Below are positions 43,642 through 62,064 of a DNA stretch of 64,000 nucleotides, in pieces. Source of the stretch: Bryobacterales bacterium (GTDB lineage Bacteria; Acidobacteriota; Terriglobia; Bryobacterales; UBA6623); the NCBI GenBank assembly GCA_028819575.1, contig JAPPLB010000147.1, positions 251 through 64,250 of the forward strand, given 5' to 3'. The notes below the pieces were generated by a model. That model was not told the origin of the DNA and did no database searches. It was given only the letters and a program-made list of their open reading frames with translations. Every line of letters starts with the position of its first letter. The stretch's first letter is position 1. The position numbers and the translations under genes were made by a program.

Positions 43642-43763
43642 AAATTGATTCCAGAGCAAATGGATCCAGAGTCGGATTCCTTTGCTCGGCCGACAATCGC
43701 TCTTGATCGACAATCACGATCAGCGCGGCTGACCTGCAGTCAAGTCCTTCCTCCCCCTGTCGA

Positions 43764-43814
43764 GGGTTCTCCGCTTTCCGCCAGGTACGGGTGAGCGGAA
43801 AGCTCCCAACCCTT
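43764..43814 (+). promoter_or_regulatory. Hairpin element copy 9
   Basis: Sequence gggttctccgctttccgcc-aggtacgg-gtgagcggaaagctcccaaccctt. CAGGAGGA, then ATG 43838. Confidence 0.75.
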
Positions 43815-43837
43815 TGCCATCAGGAGGAAACCTCATC

Positions 43838-44065
43838 ATGTCACTCTCCCCCACCGTCGAATTGAGCCTCACGCTACAGGCGCAGCGCGAGGACGACGCT
43901 CCGGAGAAGCCTGTCTGCGCCCGATGCCGCAGCACCGAGATCACCTTCGACGCCACCGCCTATTGGGACGCCAGGCAGCAGCAGTTCGAGTACGACATTT
44001 TCGGCGAGAAGGCGCTCTGCCTGAATTGCGACGGCAAGCAGCCCGTCGATTGGATTCCGGCCTGA
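43838..44065 (+). CDS. Small Cys4 zinc-ribbon protein
   Basis: 75 aa starting at ATG 43838, with CARC...CLNC. Confidence 0.5.
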   Translation: MSLSPTVELSLTLQAQREDDAPEKPVCARCRSTEITFDATAYWDARQQQFEYDIFGEKALCLNCDGKQPVDWIPA

Positions 44066-44095
44066 CCATCCCGCCTCTTGCCTCCTGCCTGAACA

Positions 44096-44145
44096 GGGTT
44101 CTCCGCTTTCTGCCATCTACGGGCGAGCGGAAAGCTCCAAACCCA
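44096..44145 (+). promoter_or_regulatory. Hairpin element copy 10
   Basis: Sequence gggttctccgctttctgcc-atctacgg-gcgagcggaaagctccaaaccca. CAGGAGAG, then ATG 44168. Confidence 0.75.
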
Positions 44146-44167
44146 TTCATCCAGGAGAGATCGCCCG

Positions 44168-47440: not shown

Positions 47441-47509
47441 CAGGGACCGCCTTGCGGCCTTCGGTCCGGCTGCCGGCCGGTTGCTACAATGAGGGCCTCG
47501 CGAGGCCCC

Positions 47510-48139
47510 ATGTCCTCCACCACTTCAGCGCCTCTCTCTCATCAACAGCGCGAATCGAGCGAGCTCTATCACAGCGATGCCTACGCCTGGTCCCTCGAGC
47601 AGTCCGACGCCCTTCGCCGCCGCGACTTTGACGCCATCGATTGGGAGAATGTCATCGAGGAGATCGAATCCGTGGGCAGGACCGAAAAACGTATCTGGAC
47701 CTCGAAATGCGCCAATACCATCACGCACCTTCTCAAGATCGAGCACGCCAGGATGGCGACGCCTGAAGAGGTTACCGGCTGGGAAGAGGAAGTTCAGGAC
47801 TTCCGCACCGACATGGCTGGGGTCATCGTTGACAATCCCCGCCTGCAGAACCTCTACCCCGAAATGTTCCGCGCCGCCTGGCACCAGGGGCGCAGCAAAG
47901 CGGTCCGCGATCTCGCTTCCTACGATGTTCAGCACAACCTCGAGCCCGATCATCGATCAGCCCGCAAGACTCGCGACCGTACGCTTCCTTCTTCCTGCCC
48001 CTACCGCCTCCACGACGTGACCGCCTTCACCTACGACCGCAAAAACGCCCTTCATGAGCATGACCCCGAAATTCTTCCCGAGGCGGTCCGGCGTTCGCTC
48101 GACTACCACCGCTCGCGCGCGCAGCAGTGGGACCGCTAG
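47510..48139 (+). CDS. DUF29 family protein, copy 1
   Basis: ELYHSDAYAWSLEQSDALRRRDFDAIDWENVIEEIESVGRTEK is the DUF29 signature as I recall it. Start at ATG 47510. Confidence 0.75.
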   Translation: MSSTTSAPLSHQQRESSELYHSDAYAWSLEQSDALRRRDFDAIDWENVIEEIESVGRTEKRIWTSKCANTITHLLKIEHARMATPEEVTGWEEEVQDFRTDMAGVIVDNPRLQNLYPEMFRAAWHQGRSKAVRDLASYDVQHNLEPDHRSARKTRDRTLPSSCPYRLHDVTAFTYDRKNALHEHDPEILPEAVRRSLDYHRSRAQQWDR

Positions 48140-48306
48140 TTTCCTTCCTTTTGCGCAGCTTTTCGCCCATCGCTTCGTTGCGGTGCTCCTCTTCGCTTCG
48201 ACGCCTTGATACGCTCGCCGTCAGCGGCATCTGAATGTTCGTGCCCGCTCTCTTCGTTCCTTTCGGATGCCGGCCACTTGCTACAATAAATCGCTCGCGA
48301 GGCCCC

Positions 48307-48936
48307 ATGTCCACGGCTGCTTCAACACCCTCCACCCTTGAGCAGCAGCGCTCCGCCGAGCTCTACCACGATGACCCCTATTCCTGGTCGCTCGAGCAAG
48401 CCGATGCTCTACGGCGCCGCGACTTCGCTTCTGTCGATTGGGAGAATGTCATCGAGGAGATCGAAGCGGTGAGCCGCAATGAAGCCAGCACCTGGGTTTC
48501 CAATTGCGCGAACGCCATCGAGCACATGCTCAAGATCGAGCATTGCAAGCTCGTTCAGCCCTACGTCGTTCGCAATTGGAGTGATGAGATTCCCGGATAC
48601 CGCGACGGCATGGAAACAGCTTCCCGCAAGAATCCGGGCATCACCTCGCGCTTCGACGAGCTCTTCCGCGAAGCCTGGAACGACGCTCGCAACCACACTC
48701 TGACTGCGCTCTCCCGCTATGACGTGGAGCACAAGCTTTCGCCCGATCGTCCACAGTCTTACAAGCGCCGCAACATGCTTCTCCCCCGCGAGTGCCCCTA
48801 CGATTTTGCCGACGTCACCGGCATCTTCCATGTTCGCGGCGACCGCAAACCCCACTACGACCGCTTCGTTCTTCCGCCTTCCATTCAGAAGATCGTCGAT
48901 GAGCGCTGCCGCGATTCTCCTTCCCGCGACCGCTGA
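48307..48936 (+). CDS. DUF29 family protein, copy 2
   Basis: ELYHDDPYSWSLEQADALRRRDFASVDWENVIEEIEAVSRNEA. Start at ATG 48307. Confidence 0.75.
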   Translation: MSTAASTPSTLEQQRSAELYHDDPYSWSLEQADALRRRDFASVDWENVIEEIEAVSRNEASTWVSNCANAIEHMLKIEHCKLVQPYVVRNWSDEIPGYRDGMETASRKNPGITSRFDELFREAWNDARNHTLTALSRYDVEHKLSPDRPQSYKRRNMLLPRECPYDFADVTGIFHVRGDRKPHYDRFVLPPSIQKIVDERCRDSPSRDR

Positions 48937-48948
48937 TTCGCTCCCTCC

Positions 48949-49560
48949 TTGACCATTTTCGATCCTTCCTCTCCTCCTTTACTCTCGACTCCTTTGCCCT
49001 CCGGCGTTATCTCCGACCTCCGCATCTGGTCCTTTCGCCAGGCGGCGGCTCTGCGCCGCCATGAGGTCGAATCTCTCGCCTGGGACGACCTGGCCGCTCA
49101 GATCGGCTTTCTCGCCGACGTGCAGGTTCAATACTTCTCCTGGCTCTGCTCTTCCGTCATATCCGCCTATCTCATCATGGAGTTCTGTCCCACTCCTTCC
49201 CGGGAATTGCTCTTTGGCCTGCACCGTTCCATTCACAGCTACCCGTTCGCTTTCGAGCGCCTCTTTCGCAACTGTCCTTCCCTTCATCCGGAGTTGAAAC
49301 CGGCTTTTTCCTCTGCATGGAAGACCGCTCGGGATTCCGCCTGTAGCGACCTTGCTCGTCTTTCCCTCGACGAGTACGACGAGAGTGATTACCACAACGC
49401 CTCTGCGGCTTTCGATTCCTTGCTCCCCTCAAGAAATCCCTACCGCTTCGAGCATGTCACCGGCTTCCATCTTCTTGACGATGGCCTTTCTCAGCTTGAA
49501 AGCTTCACCGTTCCCCCCGCCCGCGTTCTTGAATCCATCGATCGGCGTCAGAACGTCTAG
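48949..49560 (+). CDS. Divergent DUF29-like protein, copy 3
   Basis: SDLRIWSFRQAAALRRHEVESLAWDDLAAQIGFLAD keeps the layout but is much more diverged. Confidence 0.5.
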   Translation: MTIFDPSSPPLLSTPLPSGVISDLRIWSFRQAAALRRHEVESLAWDDLAAQIGFLADVQVQYFSWLCSSVISAYLIMEFCPTPSRELLFGLHRSIHSYPFAFERLFRNCPSLHPELKPAFSSAWKTARDSACSDLARLSLDEYDESDYHNASAAFDSLLPSRNPYRFEHVTGFHLLDDGLSQLESFTVPPARVLESIDRRQNV

Positions 49561-49859: not shown

Positions 49860-50074
49860 TTTTTGAAGCATGAGCAATGAGATCCGGACACGGATGCCTT
49901 TGCTCGGCCAAGCCAGGGTAATCGGCGCCCTCCGCGTCGCCTCACCCCGTCGATGGCCACCGACCCCGTTTTTTGCGCGAACTGCTCTGCACTGACCTTC
50001 TTTCGCCGGCAAGAGAAGTTGCGTCGACGGCCGTTTCCTTGCCGCCCGCGGCCGAGCGAGCCAATACTGTCTGC

Positions 50075-50605
50075 ATGCACGCCACCGAGGAAAGCCGCAT
50101 CACCTGGCTCTCGAACCTCTTCCGCGATCACGACCGCTACATGAAGAGCGCCCGCCGCAGCCGCTGGTCGTTCTTCACCCTGATCGCTGCCTTCGCAGTG
50201 TATATATGCGTGCTGCCCTTCCTGCGCAACCCCACGCACATCGCGATCGCCGCCGCGATCTTCCTGCTCTTCGCCTTGCAATACATCATCGTCGAACTGA
50301 TCGATGAGCGCCCCGGTTCTCCGCTTCCCGCCAGACTGCGGCGAGCGGTAAGCTCACGAACCTCACCACCAAGGAGAAACGACATGGACAATCCCTTCGA
50401 CTGCAACAAGCTCAACGAGCACTGCGAAACCCTCCGCAGGGAGTTGCTGCACGCCTCGCAGAACGGCCACCTCGATCCCCTCAGAATGACCGAGCAAGAC
50501 GAGAAGAACATCATCCATCACGTCAATGAGCTCTCGAAGGTCTGCTCGAAGGTCCTCGTCTACATGAACTCGATGAAGAAAACCCGAGAAGCTCTCTTCT
50601 CGTAA
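50075..50605 (+). CDS. 2-TM protein ORF that reads in frame through hairpin copy 12; true 3' end uncertain
   Basis: From ATG 50075: MHATEESRITWLSNLFRDHDRYMKSARRSRWSFFTLIAAFAVYICVLPF...IAAAIFLLFALQYIIVELI. Paralogous in layout to 50804. No stop occurs before 50605. Confidence 0.35.
   Translation: MHATEESRITWLSNLFRDHDRYMKSARRSRWSFFTLIAAFAVYICVLPFLRNPTHIAIAAAIFLLFALQYIIVELIDERPGSPLPARLRRAVSSRTSPPRRNDMDNPFDCNKLNEHCETLRRELLHASQNGHLDPLRMTEQDEKNIIHHVNELSKVCSKVLVYMNSMKKTREALFS
50315..50362 (+). promoter_or_regulatory. Hairpin element copy 12 (diverged)
   Basis: Sequence ggttctccgcttcccgcc-agactgcg-gcgagcggtaagctcacgaacc. AAGGAG, then ATG 50384. Confidence 0.65.
50384..50605 (+). CDS. Small helical protein behind hairpin copy 12
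   Basis: 73 aa, MDNPFDCNKLNEHCETLRRELL... SD spacing is the same as in the other hairpin modules. Confidence 0.45.
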   Translation: MDNPFDCNKLNEHCETLRRELLHASQNGHLDPLRMTEQDEKNIIHHVNELSKVCSKVLVYMNSMKKTREALFS

Positions 50606-50803
50606 TCTCTACGCCTGCGGGGCTCGCCCGAGCGGACCCCGCCTTGCGGTCCTCTCGCCGGCGCCGGCGCCGACCGCTCTTTCCCGGCCTTTCGAAGCAG
50701 AGAAGTCTCGACGTCGCTTTTCCGCTCTGTCTGCGGTTCTCAGGAACGAGCTGTCGCGATCCCGCGCTTGTCGGATGCCCCCATCGGCTTCATACTTCCC
50801 CCT

Positions 50804-51175
50804 ATGGACCATCACTACCGCGAACACCTGCGCATCGACACGCTCCGCGCACGCCGCCGCGCCTACGTCATCATCGCCGGCTTCGCCGGCTTCCTCGCTA
50901 CGCTCTACTTCACGAGCGATCCCGACGACACCCTTACCCTCGCGATCGCACTGGTCTTCTACTTCGTTACCGTGCTGATCGTCCCCGACCGCTGGTTCGG
51001 CCGCGGCGCTCTCGACCGCCACGACGATTCCTCTTCCGCCAGCGGCCCGCAGCCGGCCTTACGTAAGCAACCTCCGGCGGCTCCGGCCCGGCTTCAAGCC
51101 TGGCCGGCGAGGGAAGGACCGCTCCCGCCGCTCCCCCCAGGTGCGCGGCGGCCGCATGAGAGGACTGAATCATGA
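50804..51175 (+). CDS. 2-TM protein, paralog of 50075
   Basis: MDHHYREHLRIDTLRARRRAYVIIAGFAGFLATLYF...LAIALVFYFVTVLIV, then a low-complexity tail. A TTG at 50768 is an alternative start. Confidence 0.45.
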   Translation: MDHHYREHLRIDTLRARRRAYVIIAGFAGFLATLYFTSDPDDTLTLAIALVFYFVTVLIVPDRWFGRGALDRHDDSSSASGPQPALRKQPPAAPARLQAWPAREGPLPPLPPGARRPHERTES

Positions 51176-51738
51176 TCGAGCCTTCTGGTGAAACCCGCCG
51201 GCTGGTCTGGGACAATCTGATCGATTCGGACCGCATGTGCCGCTACTACGGCTACTTGGCCCACCGCCTCAAACGGCTGAATGATCTGTTGCAAGTCTCG
51301 GGCATCGTGCTCGTCGTACTCACTATCTCTTCATTCTTATACCGGCTACCTGGCTGGATCGTCTTTTCGGCTGTCAACCTCGCAGCTTTGTCCTTCGCTC
51401 TCTCGTCGATTCGCGGCTATTCCGCCAAGGCGCTCCGCAGCAACGAGATCTTCAGGCAGCTTGGACGGCTCAACGTCGAATGGGAGCTGCTCTGGAACAA
51501 TGTGAGCACCAAGGACGACGACACCGTTCTGGAGTCCTGGAAGAAGCTCAGCGAGCGCCAGCTTGCTCTCATCGAGCGAGCTCCCTTCGATCTGCCTCTT
51601 TCCGCTTCGCTCGCCCGGAAATCGCAGCAGGAAGCCTACGAGTATTGGAGCGAGTTCGCCCGCACCCATCAGAGTTCGTCCACGGCTGTTGTCCCCGGCG
51701 AGTCGCGCAGCGCCGCTGCAAGCATCGCCCATCACTGA
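51172..51738 (+). CDS. 2-TM protein with SLATT-like topology (speculative)
   Basis: ATGA-coupled to the previous gene. Amphipathic helix (RMCRYYGYLAHRLKRLNDLLQ), two TM helices, then a helical cytoplasmic tail. Confidence 0.45.
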   Translation: MIEPSGETRRLVWDNLIDSDRMCRYYGYLAHRLKRLNDLLQVSGIVLVVLTISSFLYRLPGWIVFSAVNLAALSFALSSIRGYSAKALRSNEIFRQLGRLNVEWELLWNNVSTKDDDTVLESWKKLSERQLALIERAPFDLPLSASLARKSQQEAYEYWSEFARTHQSSSTAVVPGESRSAAASIAHH

Positions 51739-51766: not shown

Positions 51767-52255
51767 TCAGCGGCGCCGCCACGCTCTCGGGTCATAGGCC
51801 TCCTTGTAGCCCCACATGCCGCGCCGCTCGCTTTTCGCCGCGCTCTCGGCATCCTGGTAGCGGTTGTCAAAGCAGGCGATCGCATGGCCGGACCGCACCA
51901 GCCATTCGCCCACGTCGCGGCCCTGGCAGTTCACCGTCCCCAGGACACGGCCGTAGTAGTCGAACCCCTCGATCCGCACTTTCACCCGCCTGCCGCCAAT
52001 CTCGCGAATCAACGCTCCTTTGACCCGCTTGCCGTGGTTGAACCAGAACCCGTAGTGGTGCTTCGCAGGCTGATTCCACTCTGGAGCATCCAGGGCCGCC
52101 AAGCGCACCCGGTAGCCGGCGACCTTGATCCCATCGCCGTCCGTGACATACGGCCGTCCGGTGATCGTGTCGCCCGGCCGCTTGCGCCACGCATGTTTCG
52201 CGATCAGGTAGAACGCAACCAGGATCGCGATCAGCAGCAGCAGTTCCATCGTCAT
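51767..52255 (-). CDS. Membrane-anchored thermonuclease (SNase-like) family protein
   Basis: N-terminal TM helix. Then VTDGDGIKV...VRLAALDAPE...GRVLG...ESAAKSERRGMW, which are staphylococcal-nuclease-type motifs. Confidence 0.75.
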   Translation of the reverse strand: MTMELLLLIAILVAFYLIAKHAWRKRPGDTITGRPYVTDGDGIKVAGYRVRLAALDAPEWNQPAKHHYGFWFNHGKRVKGALIREIGGRRVKVRIEGFDYYGRVLGTVNCQGRDVGEWLVRSGHAIACFDNRYQDAESAAKSERRGMWGYKEAYDPRAWRRR

Positions 52256-52265
52256 TCACCCGCTG

Positions 52266-52280
52266 CGGGTTCTCCGCTTT
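52266..52280 (+). promoter_or_regulatory. Hairpin element copy 13, truncated after 15 nt
   Basis: The sequence gggttctccgctttc is followed directly by A/T-richer unrelated sequence (aaaacttctcgacaccg...). Confidence 0.6.
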
Positions 52281-52481
52281 CAAAACTTCTCGACACCGTT
52301 AAGGCAGAAATCAAAAAGTACCCCGCAGAACGCCATTTGAATAAGCTCTTCAACGACATTCGACAGGAATATCTTGAAATTGCTGTCCCAAAACGGCAGT
52401 GGCACAAACTCAGGTGTCAAACGAAATCGGGGTCTGATTAGCAAGAGGCGATCAGGCACCGCAACGTGTACATCCTTTCCT

Positions 52482-54527
52482 CTAGGTTAATAACTTCTCA
52501 ATCCAGTGAATTCGAACTGCGAATTCGCTCTGCGGCTCCTTCTTCATGGCTCGCCGGACCCGCTTCAAGTATCGTCGCCCCCGTCTTTTGCGCGCCGCAG
52601 CCGCTGCTAAGCCCATGAACAGCTTATTATCTTCAGCAATCCGAGCAAAAATTTGAGGCTTGAGATCCCGATCGACGAATAGATTGGCCACACCTGCTCT
52701 GATCCGTCGACAGCGATCCCATTCGAACGAAAAGATCGACGATGGCAGTCGCCGCTCAAGCAGCTGCCAAGCCTCGTTAGGCAGACGATCGGAAGCCGCT
52801 GCCATGTGAGTTGCCTCGAATCCTAGCTGAGCAAGTTCCGCTGCATTACGTGATCGAGTGCCGAAGGCTCGTGTTAGAAGGTAAGCCTTGAAGTAGGCAG
52901 CGTGCCCCTCGGAGACCTGCCCTGTGGCGTCCTGAACAGCAATCAGCCATGGATCAACACCGACTTTGTTTGGAACCACATCTGGTTGTAGCACCCGTGC
53001 AAGAGCCACTAACAGAGCTCGATGCTTCCCGGATCCGGTGACCAGATACTGGGAAACAGCCAACGGGTCGCTCGCTGCCGCTGCGAGCCAACCCTCAAGC
53101 CCTCGGCTCTCGGAGTCGTTTTCCAATGCCGAACCAACAACCTCAAGCACTGTGGCCGAGCCGAATTGACTAACAGCACGCATCGCCAGATCGCTGCGCC
53201 GAGCGGCTACCAGCGCATCCAAAGCCGCCGCCTGGCCCTCACCCAATCGGTCTATAACCGCAAACGCGTCATCCTCGATTATGAGATCTTGCGACCAGAA
53301 CGTCGGCTCAGTTACTAACTCAGGTCGATATGCGAGCGCATCCTGCGCTAGGTCAGGTTCTCGTCTTAACCCTTCTGCAAGTTCACTGAGCGTAAGCGCT
53401 TCGAACGTACTCTGCGGAACCATGCGAAGAGTTTCTCCACCTTCGAGTAAGGGGATCAATTTACCAGGGTCACTACTCCATACTGCGCGGCCTAACCAGA
53501 CAGCAGCTTTCGCCAGATCGTCGGTTTCCACCAACTCCAGATGTCGCAATAGGAAGTCGAGCGTATAGTCATTAAGCTCACCACCATTGGTGAGCGCCGC
53601 ATTTGCCACAATTCCACACGCAGCTCGTGCCTCCACGGAGCCCAGCTCATCCTGAAGCAGCATTATCGCCTCTCCAACGGCTTCGGGACGAGACTTGAAT
53701 TCCTCAACCATGCGGTGAAGCTGGCACAATGACTTGAAAGCCCATCGACCCATCGCTCCATCACCGCCGATGTGGCACAGGAAGGTCCGCAATCCAGAGG
53801 CGTCCGGGTGCGCTAGATCGCTGATGGCTTCTACGAGCCAAGAGTCTGTATGGACCTCTTTAGTCTCTGCGTCCATAGCGTCTGCAAAGCGCCTTCGGAC
53901 GCTTCGATCTGTCGACGGCAGAAGCTGGAGATCGAAGCTTATTCCCTTACTAGAGCGGTCCGACGCCGCCAACGTGCAGAAACGGAACGTCCGACGCAGG
54001 CGGGGCCATTGCTGTGACCAAAGAGCCAGGATGACCCGATCGACGTTGACGCCGACCGGCCGTGCCGCGATAATGCGGCTGGTCGGCTCTCCGTATAGAC
54101 CGACGAGCACATATCGGCTCCATGCCTTCTCTGTGTCCGTCAGCGCAACAGGATTAGATCCAATGTCGTGCGTCAACGGTTTTCTGTAATAGTCTAAATT
54201 CGAACCGTGTGGTCTTTGAAACAATACAACAAGACCGTCCAATGACCTCAACATGGCTAGATCGGCGAAATCGATCAGAATGCTGTGCGTCCAAACGCAG
54301 CCTGGTCGAGGCATTTCTGGTGCCGCCCATGTACGCGCCAGAACGTAAGCGCCGAACTCAGTAAGAGGGTAACCAGTGAGATAACCTTCTTTGTCGATGC
54401 AAGCACCTGTGCCAGAGATGTCGCTCAACACGAGCATCGACTTGGCATCGGGAGGTTTCAGTGTCACCGAAGCCGCGAGTTGACGGTGACCCTCGGAATA
54501 ACCATGAAGAGTCTGCTGGAGTGTCAT
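52482..54527 (-). CDS. Large (~680 aa) protein, operon gene 5; GAP1-like by position
   Basis: ATG 54527 forms an ATGA overlap with the upstream GTPase stop. The ORF-track start 54557 is also possible. No catalytic motif seen. The family name is inferred from operon architecture only. Confidence 0.6.
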   Translation of the reverse strand: MTLQQTLHGYSEGHRQLAASVTLKPPDAKSMLVLSDISGTGACIDKEGYLTGYPLTEFGAYVLARTWAAPEMPRPGCVWTHSILIDFADLAMLRSLDGLVVLFQRPHGSNLDYYRKPLTHDIGSNPVALTDTEKAWSRYVLVGLYGEPTSRIIAARPVGVNVDRVILALWSQQWPRLRRTFRFCTLAASDRSSKGISFDLQLLPSTDRSVRRRFADAMDAETKEVHTDSWLVEAISDLAHPDASGLRTFLCHIGGDGAMGRWAFKSLCQLHRMVEEFKSRPEAVGEAIMLLQDELGSVEARAACGIVANAALTNGGELNDYTLDFLLRHLELVETDDLAKAAVWLGRAVWSSDPGKLIPLLEGGETLRMVPQSTFEALTLSELAEGLRREPDLAQDALAYRPELVTEPTFWSQDLIIEDDAFAVIDRLGEGQAAALDALVAARRSDLAMRAVSQFGSATVLEVVGSALENDSESRGLEGWLAAAASDPLAVSQYLVTGSGKHRALLVALARVLQPDVVPNKVGVDPWLIAVQDATGQVSEGHAAYFKAYLLTRAFGTRSRNAAELAQLGFEATHMAAASDRLPNEAWQLLERRLPSSIFSFEWDRCRRIRAGVANLFVDRDLKPQIFARIAEDNKLFMGLAAAAARKRRGRRYLKRVRRAMKKEPQSEFAVRIHWIEKLLT

Positions 54528-55417
54528 CCGCCCAATGTGCGGCACTCCATCAGCCATGCGAGTGGCCTGGTCAAGTCATGAGTCTTGGCTCCGTTCTCCA
54601 AGAGCATGATACGTTTCGACGGAGAATCTAGATTCCTAAGCGCTTCTGCTTCTGGCTTGGGGTGCGCATTCGAGTTGGTCTTATCATAATCACCGCCTTG
54701 GGCGCTAAGCCCATAAATGCGCCATGTCCAATCATCAGCCCCGAGCTGCAGATACTGAGCTAGGAGCGGCAACTTCTGTTCGAGATAGGCCCGTGGGCTC
54801 AGACCTTCTCCGCTAGCCTTGTCCCATGCTGACATCATAATCGCCAACCGTCGGGGACCGTTGTCAAGAGGCGACCGACGTAGTAGTTGCAGTAAGTCCG
54901 CCAACTGAACCTGAGTCGGTGCGAGTTCCGGATGCCACTGAACTACCGGATTCTCCGACACCTCAAGTCCCATTTCATTGGACAGTGCAACTTCATCAAC
55001 AACCCATTTCGGCGCCTGGATTTTGTCTGCATGGATGAAGAAAATAACATCACCTTCATAAAGGATCTTTGCTATTTCTGGATCACATTCGCGATCTTCC
55101 CACATTCGCCTATAGGCTTCTCCAGGGACATCCGGAAATGTGACACGTACAGGCACGCCCGCGTTATCTAATAGATTCATACTGACTAGGCGATTTCCAG
55201 CGACCGCGGTTCGATCCTGGACCTTGGCATCACGCCAACGCGCTGCAATCTCGTTCAAGTGGGAGACTTCCCCTCTGGATAGCTCGTGGAAGCGCAACAA
55301 CGTGTCCACGTCACGCTCGGTTATAAGATGCCAGAGCGCCGCGAGAAATGTAGTCTTCCCAGACTCCGGTAGCCCGATGATGACAATGGAACGTTCAGCC
55401 ATTATCCCTTCCCTCAA
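54524..55417 (-). CDS. P-loop GTPase, operon gene 4
   Basis: G1 IIGLPESGKTT, G3 FPDVPGE and possible G4 MSAWDK. ATGA overlap with the upstream gene. Confidence 0.75.
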   Translation of the reverse strand: MREGIMAERSIVIIGLPESGKTTFLAALWHLITERDVDTLLRFHELSRGEVSHLNEIAARWRDAKVQDRTAVAGNRLVSMNLLDNAGVPVRVTFPDVPGEAYRRMWEDRECDPEIAKILYEGDVIFFIHADKIQAPKWVVDEVALSNEMGLEVSENPVVQWHPELAPTQVQLADLLQLLRRSPLDNGPRRLAIMMSAWDKASGEGLSPRAYLEQKLPLLAQYLQLGADDWTWRIYGLSAQGGDYDKTNSNAHPKPEAEALRNLDSPSKRIMLLENGAKTHDLTRPLAWLMECRTLGG

Positions 55418-56439
55418 GCGTCTAAAGGTACAATTCGCGCAAAAGCGCGTACAAATTCCGGCCTAACAGGCAGTGACACATCCATTGGCGGCGCGGGCTC
55501 GAGCCAGAACGTGAGCAGTTCGGGAACACCTGTGCCGCGCGGCACCGCGTTCGTCTTGGGCGCAGCTGCTATCTTGAACGGCTGAATGACAAAAAACACG
55601 TGATCGAAGAGCTGTTGAATCCTTTCCTTTAGAGAGATGAAGTTTTTTTCAGCTCTCGCCATATGGGGCGATTTATTCACCACATCAATCTTAGTGAGTA
55701 CCAGAGCGAGACGTTGGCCGGCCTGAACTGCTCCTCCGTCAACGAGCCCCTGGAGCATCATTAGGATTTCGCTACGCAAGTTGTGGCGGGCGCCGGAGTC
55801 TATAAGCCGATTGCCATCAACTAAGACGGTAAGTGAATCCGCACGACGCACCTCTGGGAAAGCCATGGCTATCGAAGCGTCATCAGCCGCGCCCTGATAC
55901 TCCTCGCCTGCCCTATCTCCCAAGACGATAGCTAGCCTGTGTCCCAACGGAGCACCTCCCAGATCAAGATGATAAAACCTTACCTCACCTCTGGGAGTAC
56001 GATATGTATGCGGCTCGGCCCTGCGGGAAGCAGCACGAGCATCGTGGCAAGTCTGTTCGAAGGCGTGCAGTGTTTGTGATCGAGCGAATCTGATTTTTGC
56101 AACCGGACCCACTTGAAAGAGCTCGTATAAACTGGCGATCAGGCTTGTCTTGCCAGCATCTCTGGGGCCAATGATGGCAATTACACGTGCGGCGCCCTTA
56201 CGGAGTAGCCTTGATGTTTCAGCTAGAGTCAATGTATCAGCACTCGGTAATACAATGCTCGAAGGCTCCTTAGACTTCTCCTCGCTCCCTCGATCTGTCT
56301 CGGACGTCTCCTCCGCCTCGCGGCCATAGTACGGACAAGCCGACAACTCGAAAGCCTCGACGCAAAGGTCTGTCTCTGAAACCCGACAATCCGGGTTGGA
56401 GCAGAACACTACGGCTTCATCATTGACATCGTTCGCCAT
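55414..56439 (-). CDS. P-loop GTPase with N-terminal Cys cluster, operon gene 3
   Basis: CSNPDC...CVEAFELSAC, then G1 IIGPRDAGKTS, G3 LGDRAGE and G4 LTKID. Confidence 0.75.
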   Translation of the reverse strand: MANDVNDEAVVFCSNPDCRVSETDLCVEAFELSACPYYGREAEETSETDRGSEEKSKEPSSIVLPSADTLTLAETSRLLRKGAARVIAIIGPRDAGKTSLIASLYELFQVGPVAKIRFARSQTLHAFEQTCHDARAASRRAEPHTYRTPRGEVRFYHLDLGGAPLGHRLAIVLGDRAGEEYQGAADDASIAMAFPEVRRADSLTVLVDGNRLIDSGARHNLRSEILMMLQGLVDGGAVQAGQRLALVLTKIDVVNKSPHMARAEKNFISLKERIQQLFDHVFFVIQPFKIAAAPKTNAVPRGTGVPELLTFWLEPAPPMDVSLPVRPEFVRAFARIVPLDA

Positions 56440-56442
56440 GAT

Positions 56443-57546
56443 TCACTCGAGCTTTCTAAGTAGCCGCTCGCGGTAGAACAGCTCACCTAGCAGTAGAGGC
56501 GTGACTGAATGCTCAGAATTCACGCACGTAGCAGCCGCCCAGCCAGCAATCCACGCGTCACCAGCACCAGTCTCACACTGACGCTGGATCGCAAAGTGGA
56601 GCGGAGAGGAGACCGGTGACGGATTCTGCTCTCCGACGAGCTTCTCAAGCCACTCTTGGTTCGCGGCGTTAATTACCACTGAAATAGTGGCGCTGTTCTT
56701 TTCTTCCAATCCCGCACGCGACAGCAAGGCCTTTACGGACGGTGGGCCTGGGAGGAACTCCGTACTGTCCGCCAGTTCCTTTGCGAATACCAACGGTCGC
56801 GCTTCATATTCCACGTCGCTAAAGGAGCAGTTATAGTCCCAACTTCGCTGTCCTATGAGCCACCATAACATCTGCAACTCTTCATCTTGGATGCTCATAA
56901 ACTGGTTCACAGCCCAGACGGCGTCCGCCTGTTCCAGGGTCATTGTCTTCATCGCAGTCCGCACGTCACCCGCTGCGATATTGAATGCTAAAGCTACGCT
57001 GTTCCAATCTGGAGTTTCTCGAACTTTGGCGGCGGCCTTCTTGAAATCGAGCTTGGGAGGCTCCGATGGACTGTAATCTTCAAGATCCGGACGTTTGCGA
57101 TTCTCCTCAGCAATGTGATCAATCGCACTCTCGGCTAGAGCACAGAGGTCCATCGGTACATTCAGTTTACGAGCGCCACCAAGTGCCGCCGTCGTTACCG
57201 CCAATGCCGCAGCTGCACCGATATCTTTGCCGTCCTCCATGAGTACAACAAGGCAGATACCAGCAAGAACCTCTAGCTCGCGATCGTTGTCCTGCATGTC
57301 AAATGCGTCATCAGCGTTCTTGAAGGCTTGGCGAATCTTCTGCAAGGTTTCAGGGGCGGCCTTCTGCCGGGTCCGAAAAACCAGACGAATCAGCGCCTCT
57401 ACATCATCCCGATTGGCGTCTCCGACGACGGAAAGTACACCCTTCCACCTAGCCTCCTTGAGCCCCTGATCGTCGCGGAGTTCAACTTCGCCGTACCAAC
57501 GATCAAAATCCTTATGTATAGGGGGCAGATCTGTTTCAGCCATCAT
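56443..57546 (-). CDS. All-helical protein, operon gene 2; GASH-like by position
   Basis: 367 aa, helix-rich by composition with no enzymatic motif. Its stop lies 3 nt before the next start. Confidence 0.6.
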   Translation of the reverse strand: MMAETDLPPIHKDFDRWYGEVELRDDQGLKEARWKGVLSVVGDANRDDVEALIRLVFRTRQKAAPETLQKIRQAFKNADDAFDMQDNDRELEVLAGICLVVLMEDGKDIGAAAALAVTTAALGGARKLNVPMDLCALAESAIDHIAEENRKRPDLEDYSPSEPPKLDFKKAAAKVRETPDWNSVALAFNIAAGDVRTAMKTMTLEQADAVWAVNQFMSIQDEELQMLWWLIGQRSWDYNCSFSDVEYEARPLVFAKELADSTEFLPGPPSVKALLSRAGLEEKNSATISVVINAANQEWLEKLVGEQNPSPVSSPLHFAIQRQCETGAGDAWIAGWAAATCVNSEHSVTPLLLGELFYRERLLRKLE

Positions 57547-58853
57547 TGTGTCTCCCGTTGTGCGACCTCACGCGCAACCATATCGAGAATACTGCGTTTA
57601 CCGGCTCGAAGCAGAGCCCGCCCGTAGCGTTCGGGCTCGGGCAGGACGAGTTCGTTCTCATCGATAAGATCAAGATGGAGCGCAATCTCCCGTCGTTGAC
57701 TCACCGTGAGATTCCAGAAGCGAAACACAAGGTTGCGGGTATCTTCATCACTCATTGCAACCTCCTTGTCGGCATCAGCCTCTTCAGCTGCATTAGGCGC
57801 AGTATCGGGCATTGCGGACGTATTTGGAGAGGGCTGTTTCACAACCAACGAGGCTACACGGCTCGGGATAGCGATGCAGTGGCGAAAGACAGACTCTCCC
57901 TGTTGAGTCAGTTGAGGACGGTACAGTTCCGGCCTGGACTGCCATTCCAGGCAATGTGTTTTGATTTCGATCTTCCGGTCACTGTCCTGCCCGAGAACAC
58001 TGATGTCGATCAGGTTGTAGCTAGGCTGCCATCCGACTTCATAGCGATCCGGGTTCACGGCACCTGTGCTGACACGGATGTAGTCTTCGTCCCTAGTAAT
58101 TCTCGTTTGGTGCTTATGCGCAAAGAGTTGAATTGTCGCTCGTCCACAGATGGCATCGTTCACCTCATCCTGGTCCAAAAACCAATCTGGTGGGTGATGG
58201 CACAGTACCAGGTTGACGACATCATCCACCGGATCGAGTACTGTCTGGAGCGGACTAAGATATAGGCTCGCAGGGTTATCATCCTTGCCATCTACACCGG
58301 ACAACAGAGTTGAAGTTAGGCCGTGGAGCATCAAATGAACTCCCCCCTCGATCAACAGACCCTGCTTCCAATAGAGACGATCTGGGGGGTAAATTTGACA
58401 GTTGAACAACTTAGCAAAATCATTGTAGGCTTCGAGCGGCGCAACCAGCGCGCGACCGCAGTCCTGATCAGCGAACTGTGTGCGTAGCTCGCGTTCGCGC
58501 TCATGTGGAGCCGCAGACACAATTGCTGCTTGCGCGTTCCGGACCGCGGGCGAATTGATTATGACTCTCCGGTCGATGTCATGATTGCCTGGGATCACAA
58601 AAACTCTTTCCATTGGACATCCACAGGCATCGGCAAATTCCTCGAGCCACCAAATTGCAGCCTTATACTCCTCTGGATCTCCCTTAAACGCTATGTCGCC
58701 GCCAATCAAGAGAGCACCGACTGGTCCGTGCTGTTGGATTCGCTCTCGAACATCTTGGACCATCCGTGTCCGAAAAGGCCGGTCCGGGTCGGTATCTGGA
58801 TTGATGCAATTCGGTGCTCGAAAATGGATGTCAGCGATGTGAAGCAACAACAT
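57543..58853 (-). CDS. Calcineurin-like metallophosphoesterase with C-terminal helical tail, operon gene 1 (putative effector)
   Basis: Motifs HIADIHF, LIGGDIAFKG, VIPGNHD, LCHHPP and FAHKHQ. A low-complexity linker precedes a ~90-aa helical tail. Confidence 0.75.
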   Translation of the reverse strand: MLLLHIADIHFRAPNCINPDTDPDRPFRTRMVQDVRERIQQHGPVGALLIGGDIAFKGDPEEYKAAIWWLEEFADACGCPMERVFVIPGNHDIDRRVIINSPAVRNAQAAIVSAAPHERERELRTQFADQDCGRALVAPLEAYNDFAKLFNCQIYPPDRLYWKQGLLIEGGVHLMLHGLTSTLLSGVDGKDDNPASLYLSPLQTVLDPVDDVVNLVLCHHPPDWFLDQDEVNDAICGRATIQLFAHKHQTRITRDEDYIRVSTGAVNPDRYEVGWQPSYNLIDISVLGQDSDRKIEIKTHCLEWQSRPELYRPQLTQQGESVFRHCIAIPSRVASLVVKQPSPNTSAMPDTAPNAAEEADADKEVAMSDEDTRNLVFRFWNLTVSQRREIALHLDLIDENELVLPEPERYGRALLRAGKRSILDMVAREVAQRETQ

Positions 58854-59059
58854 TTGCCAGGATACTAGTGGTCCGAAAAGAATGGAGAATTCTTCGATCC
58901 AGGCTTCCTAATCTCAGAAGTATTTTAGAACACCCATGAATCGAGGATGCCGCGAAGATCGATGGGTGTGAACGATTCCCGAAAAGTCCTTCTGAACTCT
59001 GCTGTGTCTCACAACTCCTAAGTTATAGTACGCCCATGCCCGCGTTGATTTCACGGGAT

Positions 59060-60371: not shown

Positions 60372-61100
60372 CTAATCTTCAACCACTAACTGCTTCTGTT
60401 TGATCCACTTTGCGCCGCTTGGGGTCACTACGAGAAGATCGATTGGACCGCCTACTGTTTTCTCACGATTCTGAAAGCGGAGGGTTTCAATCGTGCTGCG
60501 AATGCCAAAAACCGCGAAATCGATTGCGTCTTGCAGAGTAAAGAACTCAAATGGTACTCCGAAAGATGGCAATGGTACTGCTGGCAGGTCGCCCTCTTGG
60601 ACTAAGTTCACTTCATTGAGTAGACGCTGAAGAACATCGATTTCACCTCCCCAGTTAGCACCCTGTCGATTGACGGGATTCAAGCGAATGACCGGCCCAA
60701 CGGCGGGATCAACAGAAAAAAGTGTCTGCTCCCATCCTGCCTCCGTTTGAGTGTACCCAGCTATATGAAACATAGTGCCAGGGCGGACGCCGAGCGTAGA
60801 CAAGTAGGCCTTAAGTTCATTCGCAACCTGTTCGGCGTACAGATTCTTCCCCACTAGTTTTTCGACGATGAAGGACTCAACAAAGCCAGCGATGGGAACG
60901 CCGCCAATGTCTGCGGGACCGCAAGTTGCAATGCCAATGTTGTTCGGAGCTAGAAAGAGCTTCCTTGCACTATCAGATGTAGTTAGCGAGAGCGTGTGTT
61001 CCGGGCCGCCAGGCAGGGCACGGGGGATCGTGAGGGTCAGGCGACTATCAGCCGCCATGACGATTCCTTCGCGAGTGTAAACGCTGATGATGAGCGACAT
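60372..61100 (-). CDS. Proteasome-beta/HslV-like Ntn hydrolase with Ser after initiator Met
   Basis: From ATG 61100: M-SLIISVYTREGIVMAADSRLT aligns with T1-TIVGV...GVVIAAD17-R-T of proteasome beta subunits. The TTG at 61109 in the ORF track is less likely. Confidence 0.6.
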   Translation of the reverse strand: MSLIISVYTREGIVMAADSRLTLTIPRALPGGPEHTLSLTTSDSARKLFLAPNNIGIATCGPADIGGVPIAGFVESFIVEKLVGKNLYAEQVANELKAYLSTLGVRPGTMFHIAGYTQTEAGWEQTLFSVDPAVGPVIRLNPVNRQGANWGGEIDVLQRLLNEVNLVQEGDLPAVPLPSFGVPFEFFTLQDAIDFAVFGIRSTIETLRFQNREKTVGGPIDLLVVTPSGAKWIKQKQLVVED

Positions 61101-61105
61101 AGCGC

Positions 61106-61969
61106 TCAAGAGTCCTTGATCGGCGGCTGATTTGTTTCTTGCGACAGTTCGTTCAGACGTACCTCGAGAGCCTTAAGAAAGGCCTTTCGAACTTTGCTTT
61201 TCTGCGCGGAGTCGAGGTCGTGGCCAAGCACATTTCGCGAACTTGCCAGGAGAGGTGCATCAATCTGCTTCGGTCGTGTTTTCGTCTGTAAGATGCTGTC
61301 GAAAAGTGTGGCAACTTCTCCCTCAGGCACCTTGTTAGCTAAGTTCCGTGCGACTTTTTCGAGAGGATCGACAGCATCACTAGATCCACTTGGTTCAGGT
61401 GTAGGATCCTCAGAGAGTAGCTCAGATACGGTGTGAGAACTGCGCTTCATGAAATTGCCGAGGTCAGATGCTTCCCATTGGTAGGTTACATCGGCCTCTT
61501 GAAGAAGAAACAAGGACTGACTTCCGCGGGCCGGCTTGATTCCGATCAGGTGAACTCGAACCCCATACTCTTGTGCCACTTGTACCCCGACTCTGAGATC
61601 TTCATCCCCGGAAAGCAGTACGCACTCAGCCATAGCTCGGTTGCGTGCGAGTGTGATCATATCGGTGATGATCAGAGAATCAACACCTTTCTGCTGACCG
61701 TAAGAATTCACGAAGCCGAGTCGGATCTTGACATCCGTCAGTTCAGCCAACGCAATGTGCTGAGGTGACGGCCCCTGGGAAGTGCCGTCGTACCAGTAGA
61801 TTCTGAGCAACTTCAAGTTCGACTGAGTTTCCGCGAATGCCTTCAGGTAGGCAACAGCGGCACTGTGGTCGAGATTCATCTCACCGCGCTTCAACTTCTC
61901 ACCGAAAAGCTCGTGTGACCCCTGGGCGAAGAGGTAGCCTGCATCAACGAAGACGGCGACACGATCCAT
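61106..61969 (-). CDS. NYN (LabA-like, PIN-fold) nuclease domain protein with helical C-terminal extension
   Basis: From ATG 61969: MDRVAVFVDAGYLF, QQKGVDSLIITDM and LLSGDEDLRVGV are the NYN acidic motifs. Confidence 0.7.
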   Translation of the reverse strand: MDRVAVFVDAGYLFAQGSHELFGEKLKRGEMNLDHSAAVAYLKAFAETQSNLKLLRIYWYDGTSQGPSPQHIALAELTDVKIRLGFVNSYGQQKGVDSLIITDMITLARNRAMAECVLLSGDEDLRVGVQVAQEYGVRVHLIGIKPARGSQSLFLLQEADVTYQWEASDLGNFMKRSSHTVSELLSEDPTPEPSGSSDAVDPLEKVARNLANKVPEGEVATLFDSILQTKTRPKQIDAPLLASSRNVLGHDLDSAQKSKVRKAFLKALEVRLNELSQETNQPPIKDS

Positions 61970-62064
61970 GCCAAGTTTTCTCTTCAGAACCACGTGGAGG
62001 CCCCCGAAGGGGCCTCCTATTAAGCTGCCCAATTTATTAAGACTAGATCGGGCAACCACTACGA

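Follow-up and report, generated by a model that had tools for sequence, protein, structure and literature searches.

The analysed window, a 64,000-nucleotide stretch of a Bryobacterales (Acidobacteriota) genome, carries five genes on the minus strand, as the initial annotation had recognised (Table 1); a conjugative element bears them in its cargo region. In Pfam, all five encoded proteins matched families of the double-GTPase (DO-GTPase) systems, each over the gathering score, and as a GAP1-N1 type DO-GTPase conflict system the operon is complete and uninterrupted. The order Metallophos+GAAD, GASH, DO-GTPase2, DO-GTPase1 and GAP1-N1 is the commonest architecture of the GAP1-N1 type; since all five genes match it, the GTPase-centred ternary conflict system proposed in the initial annotation is supported. 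Of the profiles that had been anticipated, these six were obtained and separate GAP1-M/C matches were not.

Table 1. Features of the cassette and its vicinity, in window coordinates.
Feature	Position	Strand	Basis
Mobile cassette	52491..58909	-	Sole stretch with DNA homology to nearest relatives (blastn)
Hairpin repeat of the element, truncated to its 5' half, outside cassette	52252..52281	+	Repeat-family comparison
Gene 1, effector: metallophosphoesterase with C-terminal GAAD, 436 aa	57543..58853	-	Pfam, motifs, AlphaFold, Foldseek
Metallophosphoesterase catalytic domain, residues 1-270, helical insert 95-147	58044..58853	-	Pfam, AlphaFold, Foldseek, conservation
Small beta-sandwich domain, residues 278-328, 3' of catalytic domain	57870..58022	-	AlphaFold; also within YydB structural match
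Disordered, weakly conserved linker, residues 333-366	57756..57857	-	pLDDT 34-44; column conservation 0.26
Internal Shine-Dalgarno AAGGAGG inside gene 1	57761..57767	-	Read from sequence; conserved in homologues
Predicted in-frame internal ORF, free GAAD M367-Q436, 70 aa, with stop codon	57543..57755	-	Shine-Dalgarno and ATG, homologues
Gene 2, GASH, all-helical, 367 aa	56443..57546	-	Pfam GASH 4.5e-16
Gene 3, DO-GTPase2 with N-terminal four-Cys Zn-ribbon-like module, 341 aa	55414..56439	-	Pfam DO-GTPase2 1.4e-53
Gene 3 Cys cluster C13-x4-C18-x7-C26-x8-C35, putative Zn ribbon	56335..56403	-	Four Cys invariant, 11 orthologues
Gene 4, DO-GTPase1, 292 aa from ATG 55402	54524..55402	-	Pfam DO-GTPase1 3.4e-72
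Gene 5, GAP1, 691 aa from ATG 54557	52482..54557	-	Pfam GAP1-N1 1.5e-28

The stop codon of gene 1 overlaps the start of gene 2 as ATGA (57543-57546) and genes 2 and 3 are separated by 3 nt (56440-56442), as initially described. A second ATGA had been reported at 55414-55417, where the letters are in fact TTGA. Gene 4 can be read from 55417 or 55402 (297 or 292 aa), and we placed its start at the ATG at 55402 because its homologues are 286-292 aa long and a GGGAAGGGA Shine-Dalgarno sequence precedes this codon, which leaves an 11-nt spacer after gene 3. Gene 5 likewise has alternative starts at 54557 and 54527 (691 or 681 aa). The ATGA reported at 54524-54527 does exist, but its Met is limited to the closest clade, whereas the upstream ATG at 54557 is kept in 12/12 loci compared; we therefore take 54557 as the most likely start of GAP1, which gives a predicted 34-nt overlap with gene 4.

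The GTPase motifs quoted in the initial annotation were all found and are conserved. In gene 3, the P-loop GPRDAGKTS91-99 (K97), the Walker B motif DRAGEE175-180 and TKID249-252 are kept in 11 orthologues, as is the N-terminal Cys cluster that had been pointed out. Gene 4 has the motifs GLPESGKTT10-18 (P-loop, K16) and DVPGE91-95, kept in all orthologues, and the likewise conserved S191-AWD-K195 and SAQGG233. Gene 5 combines a conserved alpha/beta N-terminal region with a long alpha-helical solenoid: in its AlphaFold model (mean pLDDT 88), strands and helices extend to about residue 220, followed by helices only. A structure search of the PDB and of viral structures returned no significant match to it, only generic solenoids.

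The effector gene showed a Metallophos match over residues 1-249 (5.5e-9) and a GAAD match over residues 372-429 (4.8e-13). Its catalytic motifs DIH8-10, GGD51-53, GNHD89-92, CHH218-220 and HKH246-248, likewise noticed at first reading, did not vary among 44 homologues. In the AlphaFold model (mean pLDDT 83), the catalytic domain is followed by four strands (278-287, 294-306, 309-313 and 323-328; pLDDT about 90), a segment with pLDDT <50 (333-368) and helices (375-435), in agreement with the helical tail after a linker that had been described. Taken together, the invariant phosphoesterase motifs and the conserved P-loops, Walker-B Glu and G4 Asp of the GTPase pair argue for catalytic competence.

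Foldseek ranked YydB first (1.9e-19), followed by the class-III phosphodiesterases GpdQ and Rv0805 (1e-10 to 1e-9), ahead of Mre11 and SMPDL3 (about 1e-7). Because class-III phosphodiesterases fit the fold better than Mre11, a nucleotide or cyclic nucleotide is suggested as a likelier substrate than bulk DNA. NCBIfam gave matches to DS8 (4e-18) and DS9_1 (1.6e-15), at the domain level only; judged by sequence, the head is homologous to the anti-phage metallophosphatases DS-8 and DS-9A, for which anti-phage activity and its dependence on catalytic residues were proven by experiment (PMC13092281). Some databases label homologues CpdA.

Kaur et al. 2020 (PMC7159879) give the composition of this type as GAP1-N1, GASH and two DO-GTPases, of which one has a Zn ribbon at its N-terminus; the most frequent effector in their account is a calcineurin-type phosphoesterase, and GAAD often serves as the coupling domain. 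The operon in the window matches that arrangement exactly. Our literature search found the DO-GTPase system names in no other paper, and no experiment on any DO-GTPase system. For GASH, DO-GTPase2, DO-GTPase1 and GAP1, we found no sequence relatives in the PDB and no model of this four-protein core in PADLOC 2.0 or NCBIfam 20, which agrees with the uncharacterised status first assigned to the system.

Within gene 1, an AAGGAGG sequence lies 5 nt upstream of an in-frame ATG (M367, 57755-57753), at the boundary between linker and GAAD. Its predicted pairing with the anti-Shine-Dalgarno sequence (-12.1 kcal/mol) ranks first among the ribosome-binding sites of the operon, ahead of those of gene 4 (-8.1), gene 2 (-7.4), genes 3 and 5 (-2.5 each) and gene 1, the effector, whose own start nearly lacks one (-1.5). 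Met occupies the aligned position in 44/52 homologues; it is absent in the other 8, among them L015 (ATA), a close relative that looks intact. The median pairing at the internal Met was -8.35 kcal/mol, vs -2.4 kcal/mol at 287 control in-frame ATGs of the same genes (p = 1e-16). It also exceeded that of synonymous shuffles (-7.44 vs -5.33, p = 6e-6), whose mean of -5.3 indicates that the conserved peptide by itself already encodes a moderately Shine-Dalgarno-like sequence. The Glu codon at -3 from the internal Met is GAG rather than GAA in 26 cases against 4; within the close clade GAG is used in 14/14, vs 108:77 at other conserved Glu columns. The signal forms one sharp positional peak, from -12 to -4, and the GGAG core is kept across subfamilies although the encoded peptides differ. 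Moreover, the conserved residues E364, A365 and M367 lie in sequence for which disorder is predicted. Gene callers annotate GAAD-only ORFs of 61-75 aa that start from the internal Met, directly upstream of GASH; such separate ORFs may be decay products.

Given that the internal site is strong and conserved and that the effector's own ribosome-binding site is near absent, gene 1 is predicted to give little full-length enzyme and much more of a free 70-aa GAAD. There is an appreciable, if minor, chance that the internal site is real but serves as a translational booster for GASH and the downstream core, or as a Shine-Dalgarno-like folding pause, the free GAAD being a by-product. Ribosomes would then be loaded just upstream of the ATGA junction, and the core proteins would outnumber the effector, whose translation is weak. 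The overlap of the gene 1 stop with the GASH start, seen in the window and in relatives, is consistent with this, as are the weak site of the effector itself and the position of the GAAD-coding sequence, which always directly precedes GASH, even as a separate ORF. However, GASH has a good Shine-Dalgarno sequence of its own, and the in-frame site stands exactly at a domain boundary, so that it delimits a complete, independently foldable and highly conserved domain that a pure booster would not need.

By blastn, the window was homologous to its nearest relatives from 58909 to 52491 (L009, 83 % identity) and from 58863 to 52492 (L008, 77 %), homology ending there in both. Judging from these alignments, the mobile unit is the 6.4-kb cassette alone. 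Its GC content is 54.4 %, vs 60.6 % in the remaining window, a smaller difference than the initial estimate (43-50 % vs 62-72 %). The cassette had been thought to begin exactly at a half hairpin ending at 52281. The broken hairpin is there, but 200 bp of unrelated sequence separate it from the cassette, which does not start at it, because DNA homology to relatives is confined to the cassette; the 3' half of the hairpin was absent near 59 kb, on the far side. No recombinase was seen within about 10 kb, although one had been placed next to the cassette, and the supposed defence-like cargo around it gave only generic P-loop matches to PADLOC models. The five closely packed genes and their motifs stand as first described, while some details of junctions, GC and context do not.

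In each intact related locus examined, the five genes co-occurred in an unchanged order, and this order was found in Beta-, Alpha- and Gammaproteobacteria, Acidobacteriota and Eremiobacterota. Across phyla, the distribution of relatives is patchy, with 45-75 % identity. Mobile elements accounted for 11/12 neighbourhoods (conjugative plasmids, prophages, IS/integrase islands): one cassette is inserted in a prophage between tail-tube and tape-measure genes, another lies beside a tyrosine-recombinase trio with Tn3, and others carry IS or integrase genes. In a Lysobacter relative (L010), metabolic genes flank the cassette. In a separate count, 24 plasmid records contained a homologue, 18 of them conjugative. 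Three copies have decayed (L004, L007 and L009). The four core genes also recur in a Leptospira phage record, but there GAP1 bears EAD1 and a PNP_UDP phosphorylase encoded downstream is the effector. GAAD was C-terminal in all cases; the head that carries it is mostly Metallophos and in one case an alpha/beta-hydrolase. The core is fixed and the effector swappable. The mobile settings, the decayed copies and a GC content below that of the host element suggest conflict-type biology.

These settings, almost always conjugative plasmids, ICE-like elements, prophages or IS/integrase islands, could also mean that the cassette serves its mobile element through addiction, stabilisation or exclusion of competitors, the phosphoesterase being a toxin freed when the element is lost. 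The combination of a weak effector site with a strong site for free GAAD resembles toxin/antitoxin stoichiometry. We nevertheless hold this to be unlikely: five genes with two GTPases far exceed the needs of classical addiction modules, and the Lysobacter copy sits in a non-mobile neighbourhood. Excluding rival elements is, moreover, mechanistically the same as defence, and the two readings therefore differ in beneficiary, not in mechanism.

A housekeeping role, in which a GTPase-regulated phosphodiesterase would turn over a cellular cyclic nucleotide outside any conflict, finds some backing in the rank of GpdQ and Rv0805 after YydB and in the CpdA label, but we judge it improbable in view of the patchy spread, fixed gene order and mobile settings of a cassette whose copies decay and whose effector is replaceable by a phosphorylase or a hydrolase. 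Finally, a DNA-processing nuclease complex like SbcCD or Mre11-Rad50, with GTPases replacing the ATPase, would fit the Mre11 similarity, a weak SbcD match and the nearby SRAP and SNase genes, but it is highly improbable, as phosphodiesterases outrank Mre11, a coiled-coil SMC/Rad50-like partner is absent, the alternative effectors are non-nucleases and the SRAP/SNase neighbours are not conserved at other loci, given that DNA homology does not run past the cassette.

On balance, we regard it as probable that the cassette is a GTP-switched phosphoesterase defence system in which free GAAD acts as a brake or second adaptor. We infer the defence role from context and effector type. The four constant proteins, namely GASH, GAP1 and two paralogous TRAFAC GTPases, one bearing the Zn-ribbon-like module, would form a GTP-dependent sensor and switch that holds the effector via its C-terminal GAAD on a flexible linker of roughly 35 residues. 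On detection of an invading phage or plasmid, the GTPase pair would rearrange in a nucleotide-dependent manner and so allow the phosphoesterase to hydrolyse a phosphodiester substrate, and the infected cell or the invader would be arrested.

The N-terminally truncated Inh restrains Tn5 transposase, and an antitoxin restrains its toxin; by analogy, free GAAD may be a built-in brake or a second adaptor copy, which would either fill the core's docking site or pair with the GAAD of the effector itself. The cassette itself is a new copy of a system predicted by computer in 2020 as a bacterial immune system, a kind already known, whereas the conserved internal Shine-Dalgarno sequence and ATG in the effector gene are a new observation, and the free GAAD that they are predicted to yield would determine the threshold at which the effector is deployed.

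The five minus-strand ORFs described in the initial annotation are present in the window, and all five products score above the Pfam gathering thresholds, as Metallophos with GAAD, GASH, DO-GTPase2, DO-GTPase1 and GAP1-N1, which upholds the identity proposed there. [quoted passage not shown] Section 28 of that paper gives for the GAP1-N1 subsystem exactly the gene set found here. The commonest effector is a calcineurin-type phosphoesterase; effectors are coupled through fusion, an EAD1 pair or GAAD, a frequent coupling domain that is predicted to dock on GAP1. The window shares every defining component and represents the modal architecture, including two paralogous DO-GTPases, both with a Walker-B Glu and one with cysteines clustered near its N-terminus, as well as mobile neighbourhoods and a patchy phyletic spread; no structural difference was found. 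Each GTPase also gives a weak cross-match to the model of the other. The expectation of GAP1 N, M and C profiles held for the N1 domain, but Pfam matched nothing past it in the window GAP1 or in 120 homologues, in a comparison confined to the Pfam models.

The operon did not match the PADLOC 2.0 model of any named or candidate anti-phage system: GASH and GAP1 were without a match, both GTPases gave P-loop-level matches only and the effector domain-level matches only. NCBIfam holds no model for the four core proteins. A SLATT-associated variant was also rejected, since the two-transmembrane ORFs at 49973-51738 (+), SLATT-like in appearance, lack a SLATT match in Pfam or PADLOC and lie outside the conserved cassette.

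The tight packing of the genes was borne out by the ATGA overlap of genes 1 and 2 and the 3-nt spacing of genes 2 and 3. At the junction of genes 3 and 4, where an ATGA had been reported, the sequence is TTGA. Given that gene 4 homologues are 286-292 aa long (292 aa for a 100 %-identical database entry) and that an ATG 11 nt beyond the TTGA is preceded by GGGAAGGGA, with a pairing to the anti-Shine-Dalgarno (anti-SD) of -8.1 kcal/mol, we place the start of gene 4 at 55402. The ATGA at 54524-54527 does exist, but as a start of GAP1 it has a Met only in the nearest clade, while the upstream ATG 54557 is kept in 12/12 loci compared; GAP1 is therefore probably a 691-aa protein whose gene overlaps gene 4 by 34 nt. 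With genes this tightly packed, the proposal of one coupled unit stands whichever starts hold. The reported low-GC block is a real contrast, but much smaller than estimated (54.4 % for the operon vs 60.6 % elsewhere), and the GC content is as low over the final 4 kb of the window. A scan for promoters and terminators found sites no commoner than in shuffled sequence.

Nothing in the cassette suggests a pseudogene, and its proteins appear catalytically competent at the level of motifs. In gene 1, D8-x-H10, G52-D53, G89-N-H-D92, H219-H220 and H246-x-H248 are invariant among 44 homologues and correspond to the motif set of the calcineurin-like superfamily (DxH, GD, GNH(D/E), H, GHxH). Orthologue alignments indicate that gene 3 retains G91-x4-GKTS, D175-RAG-EE and T249-KID, and gene 4 G10-x4-GKTT, D91-VPG-E, S191-AWDK and SAQGG; the TRAFAC-type Walker-B motifs with the conserved Glu, DRAGEE (gene 3) and DVPGE (gene 4), are invariant across orthologues. 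Four cysteines of gene 3 (C13, C18, C26, C35), a putative zinc ribbon, are invariant in 11 orthologues.

Features of the cassette, the window and related loci. Identities are those of the related loci to the window protein; SD values are anti-SD pairing in kcal/mol, for the window and as the median of about ten orthologues.
Feature	Position (strand)	Description	Pfam match	Identity	SD, window	SD, orthologues
Cassette	52491-58909 (-)	five genes
Gene 1, effector		Metallophos head, GAAD tail; own start	GAAD, PF19976, 4.8e-13	51-68 %	-1.5	about -3
Internal start M367	57767-57753 (-)	AAGGAGG-TTGCA-ATG within gene 1			-12.1	-9.3
Gene 2		all-helical	GASH, PF19994, 4.5e-16; 59.5 bits vs cut-off 27	46-60 %	-7.4	-7.4
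Gene 3			DO-GTPase2, PF19993, 1.4e-53	48-64 %	-2.5	-2.5
Gene 4	ATG 55402 (-)		DO-GTPase1, PF19975, 3.4e-72	58-74 %	-8.1	-6.9
Gene 5	ATG 54557 (-)	directly downstream of DO-GTPase1, overlapping	GAP1-N1, PF20012, 1.5e-28; 99.5 bits vs cut-off 27	43-56 %	-2.5	-5.8
Ankyrin-ArdC fusion	18598-20832 (+)	744 aa; six ankyrin repeats, ArdC-N anti-restriction domain, zincin-like MPTase-PolyVal peptidase
Proline-codon arrays	28383-28877	long CCG/CCT/CCA arrays in the type IV secretion region
Hairpin repeats	36402-44163, 50315-50379; half copy 52252-52281	about 11 copies and one half
DUF29 paralogues	47489-49560 (+)	three in tandem; 216, 233, 203 aa
Small membrane proteins	49973-51738 (+)	three consecutive, with predicted transmembrane segments; last two overlap by ATGA
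Spacer	52282-52481	200 bp, low GC, from the broken hairpin to the GAP1 stop
Two-gene unit	60372-62059 (-)	245-aa protein; 317-aa NYN-domain (RNase-like) protein, its start overlapping the stop of the first gene
Prophage-borne cassette (L018)	6557-12924	Rhodovarius lipocyclicus, JAAABL010000008.1
Paired ORFs (L015)	4021-4413, 13224-13616	130 aa each, same Pfam domain (Apolipoprotein)
Free-standing GAAD gene (L099)	1136-1333	65 aa, on a 1.3-kb contig

The same gene set recurs in other genomes: five genes in one order in 7/7 loci found with DO-GTPase1, which span Beta- and Alphaproteobacteria, Acidobacteriota and Eremiobacterota. DNA homology to the two nearest relatives covers 52491-58909 and nowhere else in the window; the cassette is therefore the mobile unit, and the minimal unit, as delimited by this homology, is exactly the five genes. 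Three of the seven loci carry decayed copies, in which the phosphoesterase head is lost (L004), gene 4 is interrupted by 2.1 kb (L007) or genes 1 and 2 are fragmented (L009). In L004 the match to gene 1 was confined to its C-terminal 140 residues; as the ORF is a 147-aa remnant, an effector swap was rejected in favour of a truncation.

Exchange of the effector was observed elsewhere. A Leptospira phage record encodes GASH, DO-GTPase2, DO-GTPase1 and a GAP1 that ends in EAD1, with a PNP_UDP phosphorylase next in order, the EAD1-PNP_UDP alternative being that of L013. An alpha/beta-hydrolase-GAAD protein is present among the representatives searched. The Leptospira record corresponds to the second coupling mode of PMC7159879, and at the level of gene content these loci thus show a fixed core with a swappable effector and adaptor.

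Gene neighbourhoods likewise show carriage on mobile elements. Database entries with 100 % identity assign the window to a Bryobacterales MAG, on a contig of 84.5 kb. In the window, chromosomal 2-oxoacid-dehydrogenase genes are followed by a conjugative element (RepA, VirB4/TraG-like, ArdC-ankyrin, T4CP, VirB11, TrbI), on which the ankyrin-ArdC fusion is unusual. The cassette lies at the cargo end of this element, among DUF29 paralogues, small membrane proteins, SNase, SRAP and NYN genes. The initial annotation had seen defence-like cargo and a nearby recombinase; the neighbours match no defence model and no recombinase was seen within 10 kb. The two-gene unit at 60372-62059 has a GC content similar to that of the cassette (about 54 %), and its 245-aa product is without a Pfam match, its N-terminus (GIVMAADSRLT) resembling proteasome-beta/Ntn hydrolases.

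Related cassettes are accompanied by IS21 and T4SS genes (L008), by an integrase with RM, TA, resolvase and AAA_21 genes (L009) or with KfrA, ParD and AAA_13 (L011), by an integrase, a large helicase and H-NS (L016), by a tyrosine-recombinase trio with mer and Tn3 (L017), or by a DDE transposase (L015); metabolic genes surround L010, the sole non-mobile context. The L018 cassette is within a prophage, at a typical moron position, with a tail-tube gene on one side and a tape-measure gene on the other. In L015, the paired Apolipoprotein ORFs lie on either side of the cassette and transposase, which points to duplication or splitting of the target gene upon insertion. No close DNA relative was found on plasmids. 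Homologues were found on 24 plasmids, of which 18 are conjugative, and IncFII/IncR Klebsiella and Aeromonas plasmids bear all five genes; a Klebsiella copy lies at NZ_CP056434.1 23174-29294, and no E. coli genome was found with the Klebsiella (enterobacterial) version.

The claim that a hairpin repeat is cut in half held: a copy is broken mid-hairpin at 52281. Its second half was not found past the operon, and the cassette ends revealed no terminal inverted or direct repeats. The repeats are imperfect, about 65-84 nt long, of the form GGGTTCTCCGCTTTCCGCC-N8-9-GAGCGGAAAGCTCC[C/A]AACCC and in one orientation throughout; most full-length copies have an AGGAGG-type motif within about 20 nt downstream, apparently just before small plus-strand ORFs. 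Their arms start with GGGTT and finish with AACCC, which reverses the arrangement of classical integron attC sites, and Rfam gave no match across the window, the repeats included. The spacer at 52282-52481 contains the end of a plus-strand reading frame (…LSKLLDTVKAEIKKYPAERHLNKLFNDIRQEYLEIAVPKRQWHKLRCQTKSGSD, then stop) and has no homology to any flank of related cassettes. A weak direct repeat had prompted its reading as a GAP1 remnant, which was dropped when the GAP1 profile search came back empty.

Predicted structures add to the anatomy of the effector and GAP1. In the AlphaFold model of the effector (mean pLDDT 83), the catalytic domain carries a helical insert and is followed by a small beta-sandwich, then by a disordered linker (333-368) and by a GAAD of four to five helices. 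In Foldseek, the top match was B. subtilis YydB (E 1.9e-19, TM about 0.5), followed by GpdQ and Rv0805 (1e-10 to 1e-9) and then by purple acid phosphatase, Mre11 and ASM/SMPDL3 (1e-8 to 1e-7); a profile search against PDB sequences returned GpdQ as the sole match. The GAP1 model (pLDDT 88) has an alpha/beta part of ~220 residues and, after about residue 220-230, a continuous all-helical solenoid, without significant structural matches in the PDB or among viral models. For the core proteins, no sequence relative was found in the PDB.

YydB, a metallophosphoesterase modelled with its partner YydD (PDB 9a6c, integrative), matches the entire effector body best but lacks GAAD and GTPases; nothing informative on the function of YydB/YydD was found in the literature. 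The class-III cyclic-nucleotide phosphodiesterase-like enzymes GpdQ, Rv0805 and CpdA, the best solved structures after YydB, share the fold and all metal-binding motifs at an identity of 15-18 %, whereas the effector adds the helical insert, the beta-sandwich and the GAAD tail. GTPases act in immunity elsewhere, as in the bacterial dynamin-like LeoA/LeoBC (Eleos) and the animal IRG, GBP and GIMAP proteins, in which paired or oligomerising GTPases form a cell-autonomous switch. The window system resembles them in its predicted switch, but it belongs to another GTPase family and lacks the membrane-remodelling domain; the sole PADLOC match to LeoA is at P-loop level (6.5e-4 over 28 residues).

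A precedent for the effector comes from DS-8 (metallophosphatase-NACHT) and DS-9 (metallophosphatase with a HAD phosphatase), which are anti-phage in E. coli and require the catalytic residues of DS-8/DS-9A for defence (DefensePredictor, Science 2026; PMC13092281). As in these systems, a homologous metallophosphatase is joined to a regulatory module built on an NTPase; the comparison supports the view that such a phosphoesterase can serve as an immune effector. The effector matches NCBIfam DS8_antiphage (NF053861) at 4e-18 over residues 5-257 and DS9_1_antiphage (NF053862) at 1.6e-15, with the phosphatase domain alone aligning. These scores are far under the equivalog cut-offs (64.6 vs 790 bits and 56.9 vs 420 bits); the homology is therefore at domain level only, and an identification of the window system as DS-8 or DS-9 was rejected. 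Their regulators are a fused NACHT ATPase or a HAD partner, that of the window a four-protein GTPase core with a predicted non-covalent tether through GAAD.

The effector gene contains a second, conserved candidate translation signal. Many proteins of 61-110 aa were recovered when 1.84 billion representatives were searched with GAAD alone, and several of them begin MS(D/E)..TRNLVFRFW; that Met corresponds to M367, the in-frame Met at the linker/GAAD boundary of gene 1 and the predicted start of a free 70-aa GAAD. M367, E364 and A365 are >90 % conserved though they lie within the variable, disordered linker. A Met occupies this position in 44 of 52 GAAD-tailed effector genes (24-100 % identity); the other 8 lack it, including the close and apparently intact L015 (ATA).

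Pairing of the anti-SD with the 18 nt upstream of this Met has a median of -8.35 kcal/mol, compared to -2.4 kcal/mol for 287 other in-frame ATGs of the same genes (p = 1e-16), and 80 % of the internal sites reach <= -6 kcal/mol vs 9 % of the others. A positional scan gave a single sharp peak (mean -6.9) for the segment spanning -12 to -4; the remaining upstream segments clear of the SD site have a baseline between 0 and -1.9. When the same peptides are recoded by shuffling synonymous codons, pairing is weaker (-5.33, compared to -7.44 for the natural sequences; p = 6e-6). At -3, Glu is encoded by GAG in 26 cases and by GAA in 4; in the close clade it is GAG in 14/14, compared to 108:77 over 14 other conserved Glu columns. 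Moreover, the GGAG core is kept across subfamilies with differing peptides (VEAA-M, EEGDA-M, ARSEP-M, AKES-M). Taken as nucleotide sequence, the internal SD and ATG thus show a conserved signal. The ribosome-binding sites of the operon have their extremes in this one gene, with the internal site strongest and the effector's own start weakest. No earlier mention of the internal start was found in the literature; GAAD itself is mentioned once in PMC7159879 and is absent from its supplement.

Free-standing GAAD ORFs, where gene-called, lie directly upstream of GASH; in one case no phosphoesterase at all lies upstream, and in another the ORF comes after a phosphoesterase that is separate and shortened. 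These ORFs may be decay products. The invariable adjacency of GAAD and then GASH raises GASH as a possible docking partner of GAAD in place of GAP1. For the internal site itself, the main rival reading is a translational booster that would serve GASH and the genes downstream of it. A phage-borne GAAD mimic or decoy is a weak lead, resting on the L099 gene, which lies downstream of a peptidoglycan-binding (endolysin-like) gene, and on a 72-residue phage family of PHROGs (phrog_17389) that matches GAAD at 3.7e-6; neither IMG/VR scans nor tblastn against 50,697 phage genomes turned up a GAAD.

We tentatively read gene 1 as a two-in-one gene, a possibility that we would not yet call probable, in which the weak site yields little phosphoesterase-GAAD and the strong internal site abundant free GAAD, a titratable brake that would be overcome by the GTPase core. 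For the system as a whole, a reading held with moderate confidence is that the GTPase pair, GAP1 and GASH form a GTP-dependent sensor and switch, onto which GAAD would dock the effector; the effector would cleave a nucleotide-type substrate and abort infection. Free GAAD in excess could compete or pair with the GAAD of the effector and so set the threshold. In-frame internal starts give rise to antagonists in Tn5 transposase/Inh and in the lambda S105/S107 holin-antiholin. There too one gene has two in-frame products, the shorter of which shares the interaction domain and could titrate the longer; the short product here differs in being the predicted C-terminal docking domain of an immune-type effector.

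The conserved internal SD and ATG, the AlphaFold-level anatomy of effector and GAP1 and the explicit plasmid and prophage contexts are added here to the description of the family. DO-GTPase/GAP1 systems are widespread, with at least about 870 to 1400 homologues for each of three components, and clinical plasmids of Klebsiella and Aeromonas carry copies, yet phenotype, structure and mechanism are still lacking six years after the prediction. The family is now easier to approach, given a defined, clonable five-gene unit, the precedent for its effector class in the 2026 anti-phage metallophosphatases and a tractable source in the enterobacterial copy on a conjugative IncFII/IncR plasmid. The interest of the cassette is that a whole family is without experiments and that the internal start offers a specific handle on its regulation, as a concrete, cheap and falsifiable hypothesis for the restraint of a dangerous effector. 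If true, a titratable built-in brake would be a regulatory principle new for prokaryotic defence systems, and it would bear on the modular adaptors of prokaryotic immunity, GAAD and the EADs of related systems.
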